From a virus (lineage: Duplodnaviria > Heunggongvirae > Uroviricota > Caudoviricetes): a stretch of 6,337 nt of DNA. The DNA is taken from the IMG/VR virus record IMGVR_UViG_2693429524_000012. The stretch is one strand, 5' to 3'. Below the pieces are notes generated by a model. The model did no database searches. It was given only the letters and a program-made list of their open reading frames with translations, and was not told the DNA's origin. The translations under genes were made by a program, and so were the position numbers. This document shows, piece after piece, positions 1 through 6,337 of the stretch. Numbering within the stretch: position 1 is the first letter of the stretch; every line of letters begins with the position of its first letter.

Positions 1-70
1 CCTGACTTTCCAGAACCATACGAATCGCCCGCTGACGGACTTCGGGGGAAAAACGAGTATTTTTAGTCAT
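1..70 (-). CDS. IS3-family transposase OrfA, N-terminal 23 codons (partial, runs off window)
   Basis: Complement of 1..70 translates MTKNTRFSPEVRQRAIRMVLESQ, with ATG at complement 68..70 and AAAGAGG 8 nt upstream. The N-terminus matches my recollection of IS629-group OrfA. Confidence 0.8.
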   Translation of the reverse strand, partial: MTKNTRFSPEVRQRAIRMVLESQ

Positions 71-124
71 CCTGTTTACCTCTTTCTCAGGGAGTTTAGT
101 CTCCAGGATTTCCGGGGCGGTTCA
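1..124 (-). mobile_element. IS3-family insertion sequence (IS629/IS1203/IS3411-like), left end; element continues beyond the window start
   Basis: Reverse complement of 71..124 reads TGAACCGCCCCGGAAATCCTGGAGACTAAACTCCCTGAGAAAGAGGTAAACAGG, a typical IS3-group terminal inverted repeat (5'-TG...), followed by a GAGG ribosome-binding site and the orfA start. Shares TGAACCGCCCCGG...TCCTGGAGA with the IS end at 6227. Family name is from memory of IS629 termini. Confidence 0.8.
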
Positions 125-139
125 CCGCGAGGAATCAGT

Positions 140-358
140 ATGCAGAAACGAGAACCCGTCATCATCGCGCCAGACTATACCGATGATGAACTTTATGAGT
201 GGATGCGCCAGAAAATTAATGCAGCGCAGGATCTGAAATGGGCCAATGAAGCCAGGGCTAAGCAGGCTGAAAATCTGTCCGCTCTGGAGCAGGATATCAC
301 TAATCTGGAAAAAGCAGCGACATTAAGCATTGCCAGAATGATTACATACCCGCGTTAA
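140..358 (+). CDS. ydfC: Small prophage early-left protein, 72 aa, YdfC-like by length and synteny
   Basis: ATG at 140 with GAGGA (129..133) 6 nt upstream; 72-aa ORF immediately upstream of the spacer and dicF, as in the Qin ydfABC-dicF-dicB-ydfD arrangement. The symbol rests on synteny and length (K-12 YdfC is 72 aa), not on a verified alignment. Confidence 0.6.
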   Translation: MQKREPVIIAPDYTDDELYEWMRQKINAAQDLKWANEARAKQAENLSALEQDITNLEKAATLSIARMITYPR

Positions 359-699
359 TAGCTAACCAACGAAGCTAAGGTTGGTAATTAAGGAGTTCTC
401 CACGGATGAGGTGGAGTGCGTGCGCCGGACACGGGTGAGCATCCGGCACTGACAGTTTACTGAAAGGATATTTCCCTGAAAAGTCAGACCATAACGCGAA
501 AGCGCACGGCGAGGTAGCTGGTTCATAGATAGCCTGTCGTTAAATTTTCGTCGACCGTGCGCTTCCGGTTGTGGCAATCCGCGAAATGGCGCGGCGGTAA
601 GTATGGCGGGGTTATTCCTTCCCCCGTTGAGGACACCGGGTTGTCAGGTTGACCATACGCTTAAGTGACAACCCCGCTGCAACGCCCTCTGTTATCAAT

Positions 700-752
700 T
701 TTCTGGTGACGTTTGGCGGTATCAGTTTTACTCCGTGACTGCTCTGCCGCCC
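700..752 (+). ncRNA. dicF: DicF small regulatory RNA (ftsZ translation inhibitor)
   Basis: Sequence TTTCTGGTGACGTTTGGCGGTATCAGTTTTACTCCGTGACTGCTCTGCCGCCC followed by TTTTT (753..757) matches the 53-nt DicF sequence as I recall it. GC-rich stem (GGCGG...CCGCC) plus U-run gives a terminator-like 3' end. It lies between the ydfC-like ORF and dicB, as in Qin. Confidence 0.85.
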
Positions 753-926
753 TTTTTAAAGTGAATTTTGTGATGTGGTGAATGCGGCTGAGCGCACGCG
801 GAACAGTTAAAACCAAAAACAGTGTTATGGGTGGATTCTCTGTATCCGGCGTTAATTGTTAACTGGTTAACGTCACCTGGAGGCACCAGGCACTGCATCA
901 CAAAATTCATTGTTGAGGACGCGATA

Positions 927-1115
927 ATGAAAACGTTATTACCAAACGTTAATACGTCTGAAGGTTGTTTTGAAATTGGTGTCACTATCAGTAACCCAGT
1001 ATTTACTGAAGATGCCATTAACAAGAGAAAACAAGAACGGGAGCTATTAAATAAAATATGCATTGTTTCAATGCTGGCTCGTTTACGTCTGATGCCAAAA
1101 GGATGTGCACAATGA
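927..1115 (+). CDS. dicB: Cell-division inhibitor DicB (62 aa)
   Basis: ATG at 927 with GAGGA (915..919) 7 nt upstream. The 62-aa product MKTLLPNVNTSEGCFEIGVTISNPVFTEDAINKRKQERELLNKICIVSMLARLRLMPKGCAQ matches DicB in length and, from memory, in sequence; it lies directly downstream of dicF. The 97-aa ORF-track version (822..1115) is an in-frame upstream extension without an RBS. Confidence 0.85.
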   Translation: MKTLLPNVNTSEGCFEIGVTISNPVFTEDAINKRKQERELLNKICIVSMLARLRLMPKGCAQ

Positions 1116-1303
1116 ATTCAGCATTTGTGCTTGTTCTGACAGTTTTTCTTGTTTCCGGAGAGCCAGTTGATATTGCAGTCAGTGTTCACAGGACAATGCA
1201 GTAGTGTATGACTGCAGCAACCGAACAGAAAATTCCCGGTAACTGTTACCCGGTCGATAAAGTTATTCACCAGGATAATATCGAAATCCCGGCAGGTCTT
1301 TAA
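1112..1303 (+). pseudogene. ydfD: ydfD-like lysis-protein gene interrupted by an in-frame amber codon (TAG at 1202..1204)
   Basis: ATG at 1112 overlaps the dicB stop (ATGA). The frame reads MNSAFVLVLTVFLVSGEPVDIAVSVHRTMQ, then TAG, then CMTAATEQKIPGNCYPVDKVIHQDNIEIPAGL and TAA at 1301..1303. A sense codon at the TAG would give 63 aa, the length of K-12 YdfD. The N-terminal 30 aa are hydrophobic and membrane-anchor-like. Confidence 0.6.
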
Positions 1304-1395
1304 AACAGTTCCGTAATAAATATCCGGTTTCATTCTTATATGCCAGCAATGGCAGGGATTTGTTCATCCTTAAATCTGTCATGAGGTTAAAACAA

Positions 1396-3867
1396 ATGAG
1401 TAAAGTCTTTATTTGCGCCGCTATTCCTGACGAACTGGCAACAAGGGAAGAAGGCGCTGTGGCTGTAGCCACAGCCATTGAAGCTGGCGACGAACGCCGT
1501 GCTCGAGCAAAATTTCACTGGCAATTCCTGGAACATTATCCGGCTGCTCAGGACTGCGCTTATAAATTTCTTGTCTGCGAGGATAAACCCGGTATACCCC
1601 GCCCTGCCCTCGATTCCTGGGATGCTGAATATATGCAGGAAAACCGCTGGGATGAGGCGTCTGCTTCCTTTGTCCCGGTTGAGACTGAATCAGATCCGAT
1701 GAACGTCACTTTTGACAAGCTGGCCCCTGAAGTACAGAACGCTGTCATGGTTAAGTTCGACACATGTGAAAACATCACCGTTGATATGGTGATTAGTGCG
1801 CAGGAACTGTTGCAGGAAGACATGGCAACATTCGACGGACATATCGTTGAAGCGTTGATGAAAATGCCAGAAGTTAACGCCATGTATCCGGAGCTTAAGC
1901 TGCATGCCATCAGGTGGGTTAAGCATAAATGTAAGCCTGGTGCCAAATGGCCCGAAATTCAGGCAGAGATGCGCATCTGGAAAAAACGTCGCGAAGGTGA
2001 ACGCAAGGAAACCGGAAAATACACGTCTGTTGTTGATCTCGCCCGCGCCAGAGCCAATCAACAGTACACTGAAAATTCAACAAGAAAAATCAGCCCGGTC
2101 ATTGCTGCCATTCATCGCGAATACAAGCAGACATGGAAAACACTGGATGACGAACTGGCCTACGCTCTCTGGCCTGGTGATGTGGATGCCGGAAACATTG
2201 ACGGCAGCATCCATCGCTGGGCAAAAAATGAAGTTATCGACAACGACCGCGAAGACTGGAAGCGTATCTCGGCATCAATGCGCAAACAGCCTGATGCCCT
2301 TCGCTACGACCGCCAGACTATTTTTGGCCTTGTCCGTGAACGTCCGATCGACATTCACAAAGACCCTGTGGCACTGAACAAATACATTACTGAATACCTG
2401 ACTACAAAGGGCGTGTTTGAAGATGAAGGAACAAATCAGAGCACAACTGATACTCTCTCGTCGCCAGTACCAGAAACTGATGCAGTGGAAACGGCAATTC
2501 CGGACAACGAAAAAACCGAATGCAAAGTGGAAATCGAACCATCTGTAGAGCGTGAGGGGCCGTTCTACTTCCTCTTCACCGACAAGGATGGCGAAAAATA
2601 CGGTCGCGCAAACAAACTTTCTGGTCTGAATAAGGCGCTGACTGCAGGGGCTACTGAAATCACGAAAGAAGAATATTTTGCCCGCAAAAACGGTACATAC
2701 TCAGGTTCACAACAAAATACTGGTGCATCTGACACGACCGCACAACCAGAGCCGGTAAAAGTTACCGCTGAAGAAGTAAACAAAATTATGCAGGCAGCCA
2801 ATATCAGCCAGCCTGACGCCGATAAGTTGCTTGCTGCCTCTCGCGGAGAATTTGTTGCAGGGATTAGCGACCCGAATGATCCGCAATGGGTGAAGGGGAT
2901 TGAAACCCGCGACTCTGCAAACCAGAACCAGCAAGAATCGGAACAGAACGACCAGAAAACGGAACAAAACAGCCCAAATGCGCAACAAAACGAGCCAGAA
3001 ACGAAACAGGTTGAACCAGTAGCGCAACAGGAGCCGGAAAAAGTCTGCACCGCCTGCGGTCAGACCGGCGGCGGCAACTGCCCTGATTGTGGCGCGGTGA
3101 TGGGCGACGCAACATACCAGGAAACATTCGATGAAGAGTATCAGGTTGAAGTTCAGGAAGATGATCCGGAGAAAATGGAAGGCGCTGAACATCCACACAA
3201 GGAGAACACTGGCGGCAATCAGCATCACGATAGCGATAATGAAACTGGCGAGACGGCAGATCACTCAATTAAGGTGAACGGTCATCACGAAATCACATCC
3301 ACCAGCAGGACGTGTGACCATCTAATGATCGACCTTGAAACCATGGGAAAAAATCCTGATGCCCCGATCATCTCAATAGGTGCAATATTTTTCGATCCGC
3401 AAACCGGAGATATGGGACCGGAATTTAGTAAGACTATCGATCTGGAAACTGCTGGCGGAGTCATTGATCGGGACACCATTAAATGGTGGCTTAAGCAATC
3501 ACGCGAAGCGCAATCTGCCATTATGACCGATGAAATCCCGTTAGATGATGCACTGTTACAATTGCGGGAATTTATCGACGAAAACTCCGGTGAATTTTTT
3601 GTTCAGGTCTGGGGAAATGGAGCCAACTTCGACAACACGATTTTGCGCCGTTCATACGAACGGCAGGGGATCCCCTGCCCGTGGCGTTACTACAACGATC
3701 GCGATGTACGCACAATCGTTGAGCTGGGGAAAGCCATAGACTTCGATGCCAGAACGGCTATTCCATTCGAAGGTGAGCGCCATAATGCACTTGATGACGC
3801 CCGTTACCAGGCAAAATACGTTTCAGTTATCTGGCAAAAACTGATCCCGAGTCAGGCTGATTTTTAA
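1396..3867 (+). CDS. Large prophage early-left protein (~823 aa): uncharacterised N-terminal region, Q/N/E-rich linker, CxxC-x7-CxxC zinc ribbon, C-terminal DEDDh (DnaQ/RNase T-like) 3'-5' exonuclease domain
   Basis: Long uninterrupted ORF; preferred start ATG 1396 (GAGG at 1384..1387, 8-nt spacer); alternatives are ATG 1381 and TTG 1360 (ORF-track start). DEDDh motifs are visible: Exo I MIDLETMG (3325..3348), Exo II WGNGANFDNT (3610..3639), Exo III HNALDDARYQ (3781..3810). Zinc ribbon CTACGQTGGGNCPDC at 3046..3090. It occupies the position of ydfE in Qin (truncated by IS2 in K-12) and of exo/recE in lambdoid phages. Confidence 0.85.
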   Translation: MSKVFICAAIPDELATREEGAVAVATAIEAGDERRARAKFHWQFLEHYPAAQDCAYKFLVCEDKPGIPRPALDSWDAEYMQENRWDEASASFVPVETESDPMNVTFDKLAPEVQNAVMVKFDTCENITVDMVISAQELLQEDMATFDGHIVEALMKMPEVNAMYPELKLHAIRWVKHKCKPGAKWPEIQAEMRIWKKRREGERKETGKYTSVVDLARARANQQYTENSTRKISPVIAAIHREYKQTWKTLDDELAYALWPGDVDAGNIDGSIHRWAKNEVIDNDREDWKRISASMRKQPDALRYDRQTIFGLVRERPIDIHKDPVALNKYITEYLTTKGVFEDEGTNQSTTDTLSSPVPETDAVETAIPDNEKTECKVEIEPSVEREGPFYFLFTDKDGEKYGRANKLSGLNKALTAGATEITKEEYFARKNGTYSGSQQNTGASDTTAQPEPVKVTAEEVNKIMQAANISQPDADKLLAASRGEFVAGISDPNDPQWVKGIETRDSANQNQQESEQNDQKTEQNSPNAQQNEPETKQVEPVAQQEPEKVCTACGQTGGGNCPDCGAVMGDATYQETFDEEYQVEVQEDDPEKMEGAEHPHKENTGGNQHHDSDNETGETADHSIKVNGHHEITSTSRTCDHLMIDLETMGKNPDAPIISIGAIFFDPQTGDMGPEFSKTIDLETAGGVIDRDTIKWWLKQSREAQSAIMTDEIPLDDALLQLREFIDENSGEFFVQVWGNGANFDNTILRRSYERQGIPCPWRYYNDRDVRTIVELGKAIDFDARTAIPFEGERHNALDDARYQAKYVSVIWQKLIPSQADF

Positions 3868-3882
3868 TGTTCAACCCTAATT

Positions 3883-3908
3883 GCCGCTAACCGTATATAG
3901 TTAGCGGC
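3883..3908 (+). promoter_or_regulatory. Perfect 9-bp-stem hairpin (GCCGCTAAC-cgtatata-GTTAGCGGC) between the exonuclease gene and xis
   Basis: Perfect inverted repeat at 3883..3891 and 3900..3908 with an 8-nt loop. There is no U-run after it, so it is unlikely to be a strong intrinsic terminator; it may be an RNA stability or processing element or a protein-binding site. Confidence 0.4.
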
Positions 3909-3925
3909 GGTTATGAGATATAGCT

Positions 3926-4129
3926 ATGAGCAACTTATTTTTAACCGAAGATGAATTGCTAATATTAACGGGCTGCAAATATGCAAGCCACCAGCGAAAA
4001 TGGTTAACGGAAAACGGGCTTCCGTTCTATACCAATCGTAGTGGCAAACCGATTGTCAGCCGGGATCTATTTACCTGCAATAAAACTTTACCACCACGCG
4101 AGGTAGAGCCGAATTTTGGTGCAATCTAA
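3926..4129 (+). CDS. xis: Excisionase-like small DNA-binding protein (DUF4224-type Xis), 67 aa
   Basis: 67-aa ORF directly upstream of int and translationally coupled to it (TAATG overlap at 4127..4131). The N-terminus MSNLFLTEDELLILTGCKYASHQRKWLTENGLPFY resembles the small helix-turn-helix proteins usually found upstream of lambdoid integrases. Function is inferred from position and general resemblance. Confidence 0.7.
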   Translation: MSNLFLTEDELLILTGCKYASHQRKWLTENGLPFYTNRSGKPIVSRDLFTCNKTLPPREVEPNFGAI

Positions 4130-5154
4130 TGGGAAGACGAAGGAAAAATCCTGAACACGAAAAACTACCTCCAAATGTATACCCAAATAAATATAGTTAT
4201 GTATGGAAACCAACATCCAGAGAATCTGTCACACTAACCGCCATCAAGGATGGTTTAGCTGCTTTATGGAAAAAGTATGAGGAAACTGTAAATAATCGCG
4301 ATCGTGCAATGACATTCGGTCGCTTGTGGGAAAAATTCCTCGCCAGCGCCTATTACAGTGACCTCAGTCCAAGAACACAAAAAGATTATCTGCAACATCA
4401 AAAAAAGTTGCTTGCCGTATTCGGTAAGGTGCCGGCAGATTCCATAAAACCAGAACACATCCGTCGATACATGGACAAGAGAGGGGAACAGAGTAAAACG
4501 CAAGCCAACCATGAAAAAAGCAGTATGTCCCGCGTTTACAGTTGGGGGTATGAGCGAGGGTACGTGAAGGCTAACCCATGTGCAGGTGTAAGTAAATTCA
4601 AGGCCAAAAACCGCGAACGATATGTAACCGACAAAGAATACCAGGCAGTATTAAGCGTTGCACCTCTTCCTGTTTTTATCGCAATGGAAATTGCCTATCT
4701 GTGTGCAGCGAGGGTTTCCGATGTGTTATCGCTGAAATGGGAGCAGATTGGAAACGACGGAATCTTTATCCAGCAAGGGAAAACAGGAAAAAAACAGATA
4801 AAAGCATGGAGTCCACGATTACAGGCGGCGATCGAAAAAGCAAAACAGTTACCAACATCCGCCTATGTAATCAGTAATCAATACGGCAACCGATATATGT
4901 ACAAAGGCTTTAACGAAATGTGGGTAGAAGCAAGAAATCGCGCAGGCAAAATTTCAGGTATTTTAACCGACTTCACCTTTCATGATCTGAAGGCGAAAGG
5001 AATTTCAGACTATGAAGGAAGCAGTCGGGATAAGCAACTTTTCTCTGGTCACAAAACCGAGGGGCAAGTGCTAATCTATGACAGGAAGGTTAAAGTTTCA
5101 CCGACACTTGATGTCCCGTTACCTGAAAATATTCCAAGAAAATATTCCAAGTAA
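4129..5154 (+). CDS. int: Phage integrase, tyrosine recombinase of the lambda Int family (341 aa); Lys found where catalytic Arg II is expected
   Basis: By-eye alignment with lambda Int catalytic regions: AARVSDVLSLKWEQI (Arg I), QQGKTGKK (Lys), FHDLKAKG (His present, Lys at 4990..4992 where HxLR Arg is expected), GHKTEG (His), LIYDRK (Tyr). The gene ends 49 bp from the 3' end of serU. Confidence 0.9.
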   Translation: MGRRRKNPEHEKLPPNVYPNKYSYVWKPTSRESVTLTAIKDGLAALWKKYEETVNNRDRAMTFGRLWEKFLASAYYSDLSPRTQKDYLQHQKKLLAVFGKVPADSIKPEHIRRYMDKRGEQSKTQANHEKSSMSRVYSWGYERGYVKANPCAGVSKFKAKNRERYVTDKEYQAVLSVAPLPVFIAMEIAYLCAARVSDVLSLKWEQIGNDGIFIQQGKTGKKQIKAWSPRLQAAIEKAKQLPTSAYVISNQYGNRYMYKGFNEMWVEARNRAGKISGILTDFTFHDLKAKGISDYEGSSRDKQLFSGHKTEGQVLIYDRKVKVSPTLDVPLPENIPRKYSK

Positions 5155-5161
5155 TTCCAAG
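5126..5161 (+). repeat. Tandem direct repeats AAAATATTCCAAG x2 plus a third TAATTCCAAG copy, spanning the int stop codon
   Basis: Perfect 13-bp units at 5126..5138 and 5139..5151, with a third ATTCCAAG at 5154..5161. Position at the int 3' end next to the tRNA/att junction is typical of integrase arm-type binding sites. Confidence 0.6.
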
Positions 5162-5203
5162 TGTGATTTTTGTCACTGACTTAATGATGTATAAGTGATT
5201 GAA

Positions 5204-5293
5204 TTTTGGCGGAGAGAGGGGGATTTGAACCCCCGGTGGAGTTGCCCCCACTCCGGTTTTCGAGACCGGTCCGTTCAGCCGCTCCGGCATCTC
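5204..5293 (-). tRNA. serU: tRNA-Ser (anticodon CGA), 90 nt with long variable arm and encoded CCA
   Basis: Reverse complement is GGAGAGATGCCGGAGCGGCTGAACGGACCGGTCTCGAAAACCGGAGTGGGGGCAACTCCACCGGGGGTTCAAATCCCCCTCTCTCCGCCA. Seven-bp acceptor stem GGAGAGA/TCTCTCC, anticodon loop CUCGAAA (anticodon CGA), class II variable arm, T-loop GGTTCAAATCC. The symbol follows from the anticodon and the adjacent mtfA. Confidence 0.95.
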
Positions 5294-5389
5294 TCCGTTC
5301 AGATGGTTGCCATGATGCCAGGAAATTTGGCATTTTAACAGTCCCTGTCCGTGCAATTTTGTTCAAGTGACGAGTTTGCGAGCAAAACG

Positions 5390-6187
5390 ATGATTAAGTG
5401 GCCCTGGAAAGTACAAGAATCAGCACATCAAACTGCCCTTCCCTGGCAGGAAGCACTATCGATCCCCCTTTTAACGTGTCTGACGGAACAGGAACAAAGC
5501 AAATTAGTCACTCTTGCCGAACGTTTTTTACAGCAAAAGCGGCTTGTTCCTTTACAGGGCTTTGAACTGGATTCATTAAGAAGCTGCCGGATAGCACTTC
5601 TATTTTGCCTACCCGTTCTGGAGTTAGGACTGGAATGGCTGGATGGTTTTCATGAAGTCTTAATTTATCCTGCGCCATTTGTGGTCGATGATGAATGGGA
5701 AGACGATATCGGTCTGGTGCATAACCAACGTATTGTTCAGTCAGGTCAGAGCTGGCAGCAAGGGCCTATCGTTTTGAACTGGTTGGATATACAAGATTCT
5801 TTTGATGCTTCTGGTTTTAACCTGATTATTCATGAAGTCGCTCATAAGCTGGACACCCGTAACGGCGATCGCGCCAGCGGAGTTCCCTTTATTCCGTTGC
5901 GTGAGGTTGCTGGCTGGGAACACGATCTTCATGCTGCAATGAACAACATTCAGGAAGAAATCGAATTGGTTGGCGAGAATGCGGCGAGCATTGATGCTTA
6001 TGCTGCCAGTGATCCTGCTGAATGTTTTGCCGTACTTTCTGAATATTTCTTTAGCGCCCCAGAACTTTTTGCTCCTCGTTTCCCTTCATTGTGGCAACGT
6101 TTCTGCCAATTTTATCAACAAGATCCTTTGCAGAGACTGCATCGCACTAATGATACAGACTCGTTTTCGGCGACGAATGTTCATTAA
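5390..6187 (+). CDS. mtfA: MtfA (Mlc titration factor A; zinc-dependent peptidase), 265 aa
   Basis: Product starts [28 protein letters not shown], contains the HEVAH zinc-binding motif, and is 265 aa, matching E. coli MtfA (YeeI). The ORF-track start at GTG 5351 is an in-frame upstream extension; ATG 5390 is the likely start. Confidence 0.95.
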
Positions 6188-6226
6188 TTAACAACTTTGC
6201 AGATTAATTAACCAATTGAAATGGCT

Positions 6227-6337
6227 TGAACCGCCCCGGGTTTCCTGGAGAGTGTTTTATCTGTGAACTCAGGCTGCCAGATCATCGTTTCCGATGGAAG
6301 CATAATAAGCTTTTTCTGCTTCTGCCGGAGGAGTATG
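6227..6337 (-). mobile_element. IS3-family insertion sequence (IS629-like), right end; element continues beyond the window end
   Basis: From 6227 the sequence reads TGAACCGCCCCGGGTTTCCTGGAGAGTGTTTTATCTGTGAACTC, an IS3-group terminal repeat related to the one at 71..124. The complementary strand encodes a transposase C-terminus. Same orientation as the copy at the window start. Confidence 0.8.
6269..6337 (-). CDS. IS3-family transposase OrfB, C-terminal fragment (partial; frame chosen by motif)
   Basis: Complement of 6272..6337 translates HTPPAEAEKAYYASIGNDDLAA followed by TGA (complement 6269..6271). The TP-x-E-x-E-K-x-YY pattern resembles the C-terminal tail of DDE transposases. A second frame is also open here, so the frame is uncertain. 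Confidence 0.45.
   Translation of the reverse strand, partial: HTPPAEAEKAYYASIGNDDLAA

Follow-up and report, generated by a model that had tools for sequence, protein, structure and literature searches.

Introduction

The dicBF operon, described from the Qin prophage of Escherichia coli K-12, is transcribed only from the promoter dicBp, which is located upstream of ydfA (PMC10448788). This promoter is repressed by DicA; the Rem antirepressor can lift the repression, as can urea or high temperature, and spontaneous activation also occurs in a subpopulation of cells (PMC6832061, PMC10448788). The operon specifies DicF, a small RNA (sRNA) that targets FtsZ; DicB, which inhibits cell division in a MinC-dependent manner and blocks ManXYZ-dependent phage entry (PMC6832061, PMC10448788); and the lysis protein YdfD (PMC10448788). 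The tRNA gene serU is a regular integration site of lambdoid and Shiga toxin (Stx) phages (PMC7067040, PMC8065619, PMC9505746), and the Salmonella phage ST64B also inserts there (PMC10100743). In the 6,337-nucleotide (nt) stretch of DNA of IMG/VR record IMGVR_UViG_2693429524_000012, which was analyzed here and is referred to as the window, a dicBF operon lies on the same side of serU as a lambda-type integrase gene (int). The original prediction for this DNA, made from the sequence alone, described it as the left arm of a Qin-like prophage integrated at serU rather than at the K-12 Qin site. According to the present analysis, the window very probably (about 0.93) represents the attL end, on the int side, of a lambdoid prophage that is widespread in E. 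coli serU, carried on a contig that was broken at insertion sequence (IS) repeats.

Results

Identification of the prophage end at serU

The window was identified by exact-protein lookup as the entire contig CYFD01000113.1 (6337 bp) of the E. coli draft assembly GCA_001284405.1. Complete E. coli genomes contain positions 123-6227 at 98-99.2% identity. In 802 of 5426 complete genomes (~15%), 80% or more of the window is found at a single location, with ydfC, dicB, ydfD, exonuclease, DUF4224, integrase, tRNA-Ser and mtfA annotated in the matching genomes. The excisionase-integrase (xis-int) module alone was found in 1156 of the 5426 genomes (21%), including O157:H7 (93%) and ST131 (97.7%), and the exact Int sequence, under a MULTISPECIES RefSeq name, is present on at least 1000 contigs. 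This prophage end is thus already known, widely annotated and ordinary. A known and fully annotated prophage is the outcome that the original prediction had itself named as refuting it, and the implied novelty is refuted accordingly.

The closest relatives, strains CD45 and ESBL 15 (99.2%), carry full ~50-kb prophages. The search for intact prophages with this int and the serU core, which had been proposed in the original prediction, recovered the element of ESBL 15, where ~50 kb fill the serU-to-yodB interval with both att sites. It comprises int, xis, the exonuclease gene, ydfD, dicB, ydfCBA, a repressor/cro pair, replication genes, Q, lysis genes, terminase through J, lom, tail fibre genes, nleB2, nleC, nleH and nleF. 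Together with the 'PP at serU' of Shiga toxin-producing E. coli (STEC) O145:H28 and the phage records vB_EcoS-689R5 and vB_EcoM-606R7, the prophages of ESBL 15 and CD45 match positions 123-6227 at 96-99.2% and share the same int, attL and host flank. They differ from the window in being complete ~50-kb elements with lysis, head, tail and effector genes, whereas the window holds a 5-kb int-proximal end interrupted by an IS.

The att structure was determined by a three-way comparison of attL (window), attB (K-12) and attR (ESBL 15). The empty K-12 site (yodB-serU-mtfA) is homologous to window positions 5191-6227 at 98.8%, and this homology begins at 5191, 16 nt beyond the 3' end of the tRNA. A segment of ~78-79 nt is common to attL, attR and attB, the feature by which a tRNA-targeting prophage is recognized; in ESBL 15, attR consists of the 3' 62 nt of serU joined to native downstream sequence. 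Over 19 nt (5250-5268), corresponding to the anticodon stem-loop, attL, attR and attB are identical, and the crossover is therefore placed in this block. Judged by this anatomy, the junction is a genuine tRNA attL, in the classical temperate-phage pattern in which the tRNA is rebuilt from the attP copy. The attL copy differs from both attB and attR at 5238 (G vs A) and 5249 (C vs T), a compensated change that converts an A-U pair of the variable arm to G-C and with which the tRNA is still recognized; lysogens therefore express a slightly altered tRNA-Ser(CGA).

All elements named in the original prediction were present at about the predicted places, including the abutment of the prophage on tRNA-Ser(CGA) beside mtfA (Table 1). 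The mtfA gene is 99.9-100% identical to that of many E. coli genomes and represents typical E. coli backbone. A Shigella origin, which the IS ends might suggest, was rejected in view of this backbone and of the source record, which is E. coli.

Table 1. Features of the window, in order of position (1 is the first nucleotide)
Feature	Position	Strand	Description and evidence
IS3-family end, transposase-proximal	1..124	-	left contig boundary; inverted repeat TGAACCGCCCCGG... and first 23 orfA codons (MTKNTRFSPEVRQRAIRMVLESQ)
ydfC (72 aa)	140..358	+	71/72 to K-12 YdfC; phrog_1744 2.7e-39; annotated ydfC in relatives
dicF sRNA gene	700/701-752	+	Rfam RF00039, 76.7 bits, E 3.6e-16; identical to K-12 dicF
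dicB (62 aa), cell-division inhibitor	927..1115	+	Pfam PF05358 (DicB) 1.9e-40; 62/62 to K-12
ydfD	1112..1303	+	read-through translation 62/63 to K-12 YdfD; TAG in frame as codon 31
full-length ydfE-type gene (823 aa)	1396..3867	+	Pfam Rv2179c-like 2.4e-67; phrog_2082 'exonuclease'
DUF4224 gene (67 aa), excisionase-like (xis)	3926..4129	+	Pfam DUF4224 2.8e-16
int (341 aa), lambda-type tyrosine integrase	4129..5154	+	residues 1-313 align with 1-338 of lambda Int (1z1b)
ATTCCAAG direct repeats x3, putative P' arm-type sites	5131-5138, 5144-5151, 5154-5161	+	overlap int stop
attL duplicated segment (78 nt)	5191..5268		serU 3' 62 nt + 16 nt downstream; phage-borne copy
serU, tRNA-Ser(CGA)	5207..5296	-	ARAGORN; Rfam tRNA 57 bits; K-12 serU alignment
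mtfA, host gene beyond the prophage	5390..6187	+	Pfam Peptidase_M90 4.6e-60
same IS3-family element, distal terminus	6227..6337	-	right contig boundary, 39 nt past mtfA stop

Insertion sequences at the contig ends

Both ends of the window were compared with a 1310-bp element of strain OkiPb01684 (8803-10112 of the compared locus; annotated as 'IS3 family transposase, programmed frameshift'), a putative IS629-like element. Positions 1-124 (reverse complement) are identical at 117/124 to its transposase-proximal end and positions 6227-6337 at 110/111 to its distal end, and the terminal inverted repeats (TGAACCGCCCCGG...) and the N-terminus of orfA place the element in the IS3 family. The two copies are both in minus orientation and bracket the 6.1-kb dicF-dicB-int-serU-mtfA segment; recombination between them would remove serU and mtfA. 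At the left junction, which was checked against the intact relative ESBL 15, position 125 is the exact inner boundary of the IS end, and the IS is located within the 29-nt ydfB-ydfC spacer, 15 nt 5' of the ydfC ATG. Short-read assemblers break at IS repeats, so that the contig is uninformative on the sequence beyond them. Both the truncated look of the locus and the lone att junction are explained by the window being an entire contig from short reads that stops at such repeats; the missing second att junction is an assembly limit and no evidence of loss.

As an alternative, the locus could be an IS-truncated cryptic remnant, in which an IS-mediated deletion of everything to the left of ydfC, including the immunity region, the lytic genes and attR, left a fixed 5-kb stump unable to excise. 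The IS end abutting position 125 inside the ydfB-ydfC spacer would fit such a history, as would the nonsense codon already present in ydfD and the IS-linked prophage decay seen in relatives (OkiPb01684, with an IS in dicB) and in K-12 Qin. However, the whole draft contig ends inside the IS, and a plain 1.3-kb insertion, with the prophage continuing beyond it, gives the same contig; the contig does not tell a simple IS insertion from a deletion mediated by the IS. The full ~50-kb prophages of CD45 and ESBL 15 and the intact int, xis and attL of the window also speak against a stump, and truncation is considered possible but less likely than not. The original prediction had stated that only one att junction is present and that the element cannot excise: the former holds, attL being the only junction within the window, and the latter is unsupported, given that the window is a whole draft contig with int, xis and attL intact.

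That the contig begins and ends with opposite termini of one IS type, oriented alike, could also suggest a composite-transposon-like unit, in which two direct IS copies could move or delete the 6.1-kb segment. This is very unlikely: the int-serU-mtfA order is native and occurs in hundreds of genomes without flanking IS, the right IS sits at the usual mtfA-asnT spacer, contig ends in IS repeats are expected of short-read assemblers with an IS-rich strain, and neither a second copy of the segment nor a plasmid context for it was observed.

The dicBF operon and its comparison with Qin

Genes were called from a list of open reading frames (ORFs), by scanning for tRNAs and Rfam families and by searching Pfam and PHROG. 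In the whole-window comparison with the annotated Qin region of MG1655, positions 123-2162 aligned at 98.4% identity (2040 nt, 32 mismatches, one gap), a similarity well above chance, and the match stopped exactly at the IS2E insertion point in K-12 ydfE. ydfC, dicF, dicB, ydfD and ydfE are arranged in the K-12 order, by which the operon is assigned to the dicBF type, and DicF and DicB are identical to those of K-12. The small genes are thus homologues of YdfC, DicF, DicB and YdfD (71/72, identical, 62/62 and 62/63, respectively), as had been proposed. The Rfam match of dicF spans the full model (1-52; gathering score 48), and no Pfam family was matched by YdfC in the Pfam search of the window proteins. 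In contrast to Qin, in which ydfE is cut by IS2 after codon 256, the window gene is complete (823 amino acids, aa), ydfD is interrupted by a nonsense codon, neither the xis-int module nor the attachment site is related to that of Qin, and ydfA, ydfB, dicA and dicC are outside the window, the IS and the contig end coming between. Relatives carry ydfA, ydfB and either dicA/dicC or another CI/Cro pair upstream of ydfC.

The TAG codon of ydfD at 1202-1204 (Glu31 to stop; GAG in K-12) is the sole difference from K-12 YdfD. It is also present in CD45 and ESBL 15, where the Prokaryotic Genome Annotation Pipeline (PGAP) annotates an 'internal stop', and codon 31 is GAG in OkiPb01684, CFSAN067215 and Z1323HEC0393. 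The ydfD of the window is a nonsense pseudogene; the loss of this lysis gene through the TAG is specific to one lineage, dicF and dicB remaining intact.

The left IS separates ydfC through int from the site of dicBp upstream of ydfA, and its transposase gene reads away from the operon. No plus-strand sigma-70-like promoter was detected by promoter scan at 125-927, which includes the region upstream of dicF, and the promoter/terminator scan of the window gave nothing exceeding shuffle expectation. From the position of the IS between ydfB and ydfC and the lack of a promoter at 125-927, the expression of dicF and dicB in this strain is probably reduced.

The ydfE-type exonuclease gene

The original prediction that the locus preserves the intact form of a gene that K-12 carries only as a truncated fragment was upheld for the large gene. 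Its first 256 aa are identical to K-12 YdfE at 251 positions, K-12 then enters IS2, and the window gene continues to 823 aa; by sequence it is the intact form of the IS2-truncated ydfE of K-12. The protein comprises YdfE_N and YdfE_C regions (both precomputed Pfam hits), a central RecE-like zinc-ribbon and a C-terminal DEDDh-type 3'-5' exonuclease domain (~aa 642-813). The last was identified by the match to PF16473 (226.5 bits, cut-off 27; model 2-177 of 177), the match to phrog_2082 'exonuclease' covers 1-823/823, and the nearest solved relative is PDB 8kel, a 227-aa exodeoxyribonuclease (7.5e-8). A literature search combining ydfE, exonuclease and prophage found no report.

The protein resembles RecE (exonuclease VIII) of prophage Rac, which is encoded at the same position of the early-left operon: aa 262-625 are 39% identical to RecE aa 278-591, and the two proteins are near-identical around the CxxC...CxxC stretch. 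The region of 2830-3270 (aa ~478-625) is near-identical to Rac RecE despite the different catalytic domains. In the BLASTP comparison with K-12 RecE, the C-terminal 5'-3' nuclease domain of RecE had no significant match in the 823-aa protein, whose catalytic domain is instead of the DEDDh 3'-5' type (Rv2179c-like; 8kel), and there is no recT partner downstream. Assignment of the large gene to RecE was rejected, as the similarity is confined to RecE aa 278-591 and the C-terminal domains are unalignable. As the alignments indicate, the two proteins have a non-catalytic module in common, which at the same operon position is joined to a different nuclease in each. The label 'exodeoxyribonuclease VIII', used in several phage records, is misleading because the catalytic domain is that of a DEDDh 3'-5' exonuclease; it stems from the non-catalytic region shared with RecE.

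An imperfect 21-nt tandem repeat (four copies, 69% matches) is located at 2926-3008 inside the exonuclease gene. It encodes a low-complexity linker rich in Q, N and E, just upstream of the RecE-like zinc-ribbon stretch.

Excisionase, integrase and arm-type repeats

The DUF4224 protein matched PHROG excisionase families (1.7e-21, 1.6e-12 and 2.8e-12), and the stop codon of its gene overlaps the int start; by family match and position it is a predicted excisionase. Int can be aligned end to end with lambda Int, its N-terminus with residues 1-60 (the arm-binding region, MGRRR...LPPN.Y), and in the alignment with 1z1b R195, K218, H285, H308 and Y317 are in place, but K288 stands at the position of lambda R311. 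The arrangement is that of lambda, xis being directly upstream of int, int beside att, and the putative arm repeats numbering three in tandem next to int and two on the opposite arm. It differs from lambda in that the core is in a tRNA gene and not between gal and bio, the excisionase is of the DUF4224 type, and Lys288 is found for Arg311. The closest named phage integrase is that of Salmonella ST64B (Sb28; 58.7% identity over 96% of the protein), a phage of another genus and otherwise different. The identity to the IntQ pseudogene is 23% over 173 aa and the xis-int module has no nucleotide match to Qin; with the tRNA attL described above, the predicted difference from Qin in integration module and site was confirmed.

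The ATTCCAAG repeats at the end of int are part of a tandem repeat (5125-5161), for which Tandem Repeats Finder (TRF) reported periods of 13 and 10. In ESBL 15, two further copies of ATTCCAAG are located on the phage side of attR, at distances of ~40 and 105 nt, and a single other copy was found in 49.9 kb of sequence of this strain. Since this 3 + 2 layout is like that of lambda P'1-3 and P1-2, the array is read as a putative P' arm-site array.

Homologues from E. albertii, Siccibacter and Salmonella that are 60-85% identical to Int have kept its C-terminus (...ENIPRKYSK). Int variants of 345, 346 and 349 aa are rare (2-4 contigs vs at least 1000 for the 341-aa form) and look like rare repeat-slippage variants. 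The 13-nt tandem repeat was considered as a frameshifting duplication in int and rejected, because the ...YSK frame is conserved at 60-85% identity and the 'unduplicated' 345-aa Int is a rare variant. The int gene is full length, with an intact reading frame. It is quite unlikely that the ATTCCAAG array doubles as a slippage-prone tract that alters the C-terminal tail of Int (341, 345, 346 and 349 aa), and the rare tail variants could be sporadic mutations or sequencing errors.

Observations on related elements

Genes for type III secretion system (T3SS) effectors are located beside attR, namely nleB2, partial nleC, nleH and nleF in ESBL 15 and espK in CD45, and the complete serU prophages of both strains also carry sodC and lom. 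The window may therefore come from a strain that is positive for the locus of enterocyte effacement (LEE) or belongs to a related lineage.

No second copy of the serU core (attR) was found in the 73 kb of CD45 searched, because a second lambdoid prophage follows in tandem directly beyond the serU prophage (NZ_CP182220.1 2113054-2135000), with its own integrase, excisionase, exonuclease, DUF1482, dicB and ydfCBA genes. In UTAK-8 (NZ_CP168991.1 2060387-2061200), only the last 61% of the xis-int query was matched, the features under the match being integrase and exonuclease, which is probably the result of an internal deletion removing xis and the 5' end of int.

Discussion

The int-proximal end of a widespread serU prophage, interrupted by assembly at IS repeats, accounts for the window, and no evidence contradicts this identification. 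Two standard phage modules, a lambda-type recombination module and a Qin-type early-left dicBF operon, would have been joined in it by ordinary mosaic exchange among lambdoid phages. Tritos, PhiR42_1 and the PPompW phages share only positions 123/140 to 3875/3877 with the window and have other integrases; the same left arm with other integrases is direct evidence of module exchange.

From homology and the anatomy of the att sites, the heterobivalent Int would bind the serU anticodon stem-loop core and the arm repeats and recombine attP with attB, and the DUF4224 protein would direct excision between attL and attR. A crossover in the anticodon stem-loop would rebuild a functional tRNA from the 78-nt copy of the phage. 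In intact relatives, the operon would be driven by a PL-like promoter that precedes ydfA and is controlled by a repressor of the DicA/CI type. Its products would be DicF, DicB, YdfD for lysis and an exonuclease of the 3'-5' type, with activities as described in the literature or as predicted.

Several reservations apply to this reading. The immunity, replication, lysis and structural genes and attR are all outside the window, and the assignment of the arm sites is based on motif clustering alone. PGAP flags int as 'frameshifted' (1051 nt) in 5/5 of the PGAP-annotated relatives inspected. The tandem repeat at 5125-5161 is the likely source of this flag. Since homologues from other genera keep the 341-aa frame, the flag is probably an error; rare slippage variants probably served as the reference. 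Finally, Lys288 of Int (4990-4992) replaces the catalytic Arg311 of lambda (FHDLKAK vs FHELRSL), and a Lys at the catalytic Arg position is unusual for a tyrosine recombinase. This Lys is invariant in 17/17 family members that were aligned; they come from several genera, and one matches ST64B-type integrases.

A previously unrecognized Qin-family phage with a new integration specificity, as implied by the original prediction, might be suggested by an Int unlike IntQ and a site unlike that of K-12 Qin, and can hardly be entertained, since the element is annotated in hundreds of complete genomes and in phage records, serU prophages are established in the literature, the integrase clade includes the serU-using ST64B, and multiple prophages with dicBF operons are documented in pathogenic E. 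coli (PMC6832061).

As a common, annotated element that fits textbook lambdoid mosaicism, the prophage end is of small discovery value. Its practical lesson is that contig ends in IS repeats should not be taken for biological truncations. If the repeat array did act as a slippage-prone tract, the serU/ST64B integrase clade, with its Lys at the catalytic position, would be mechanistically atypical, with the copy number of the repeat tuning integration and excision. The uncoupling of dicF and dicB from their only known promoter by the IS, together with the ydfD pseudogene, would represent small steps in the domestication of the prophage.

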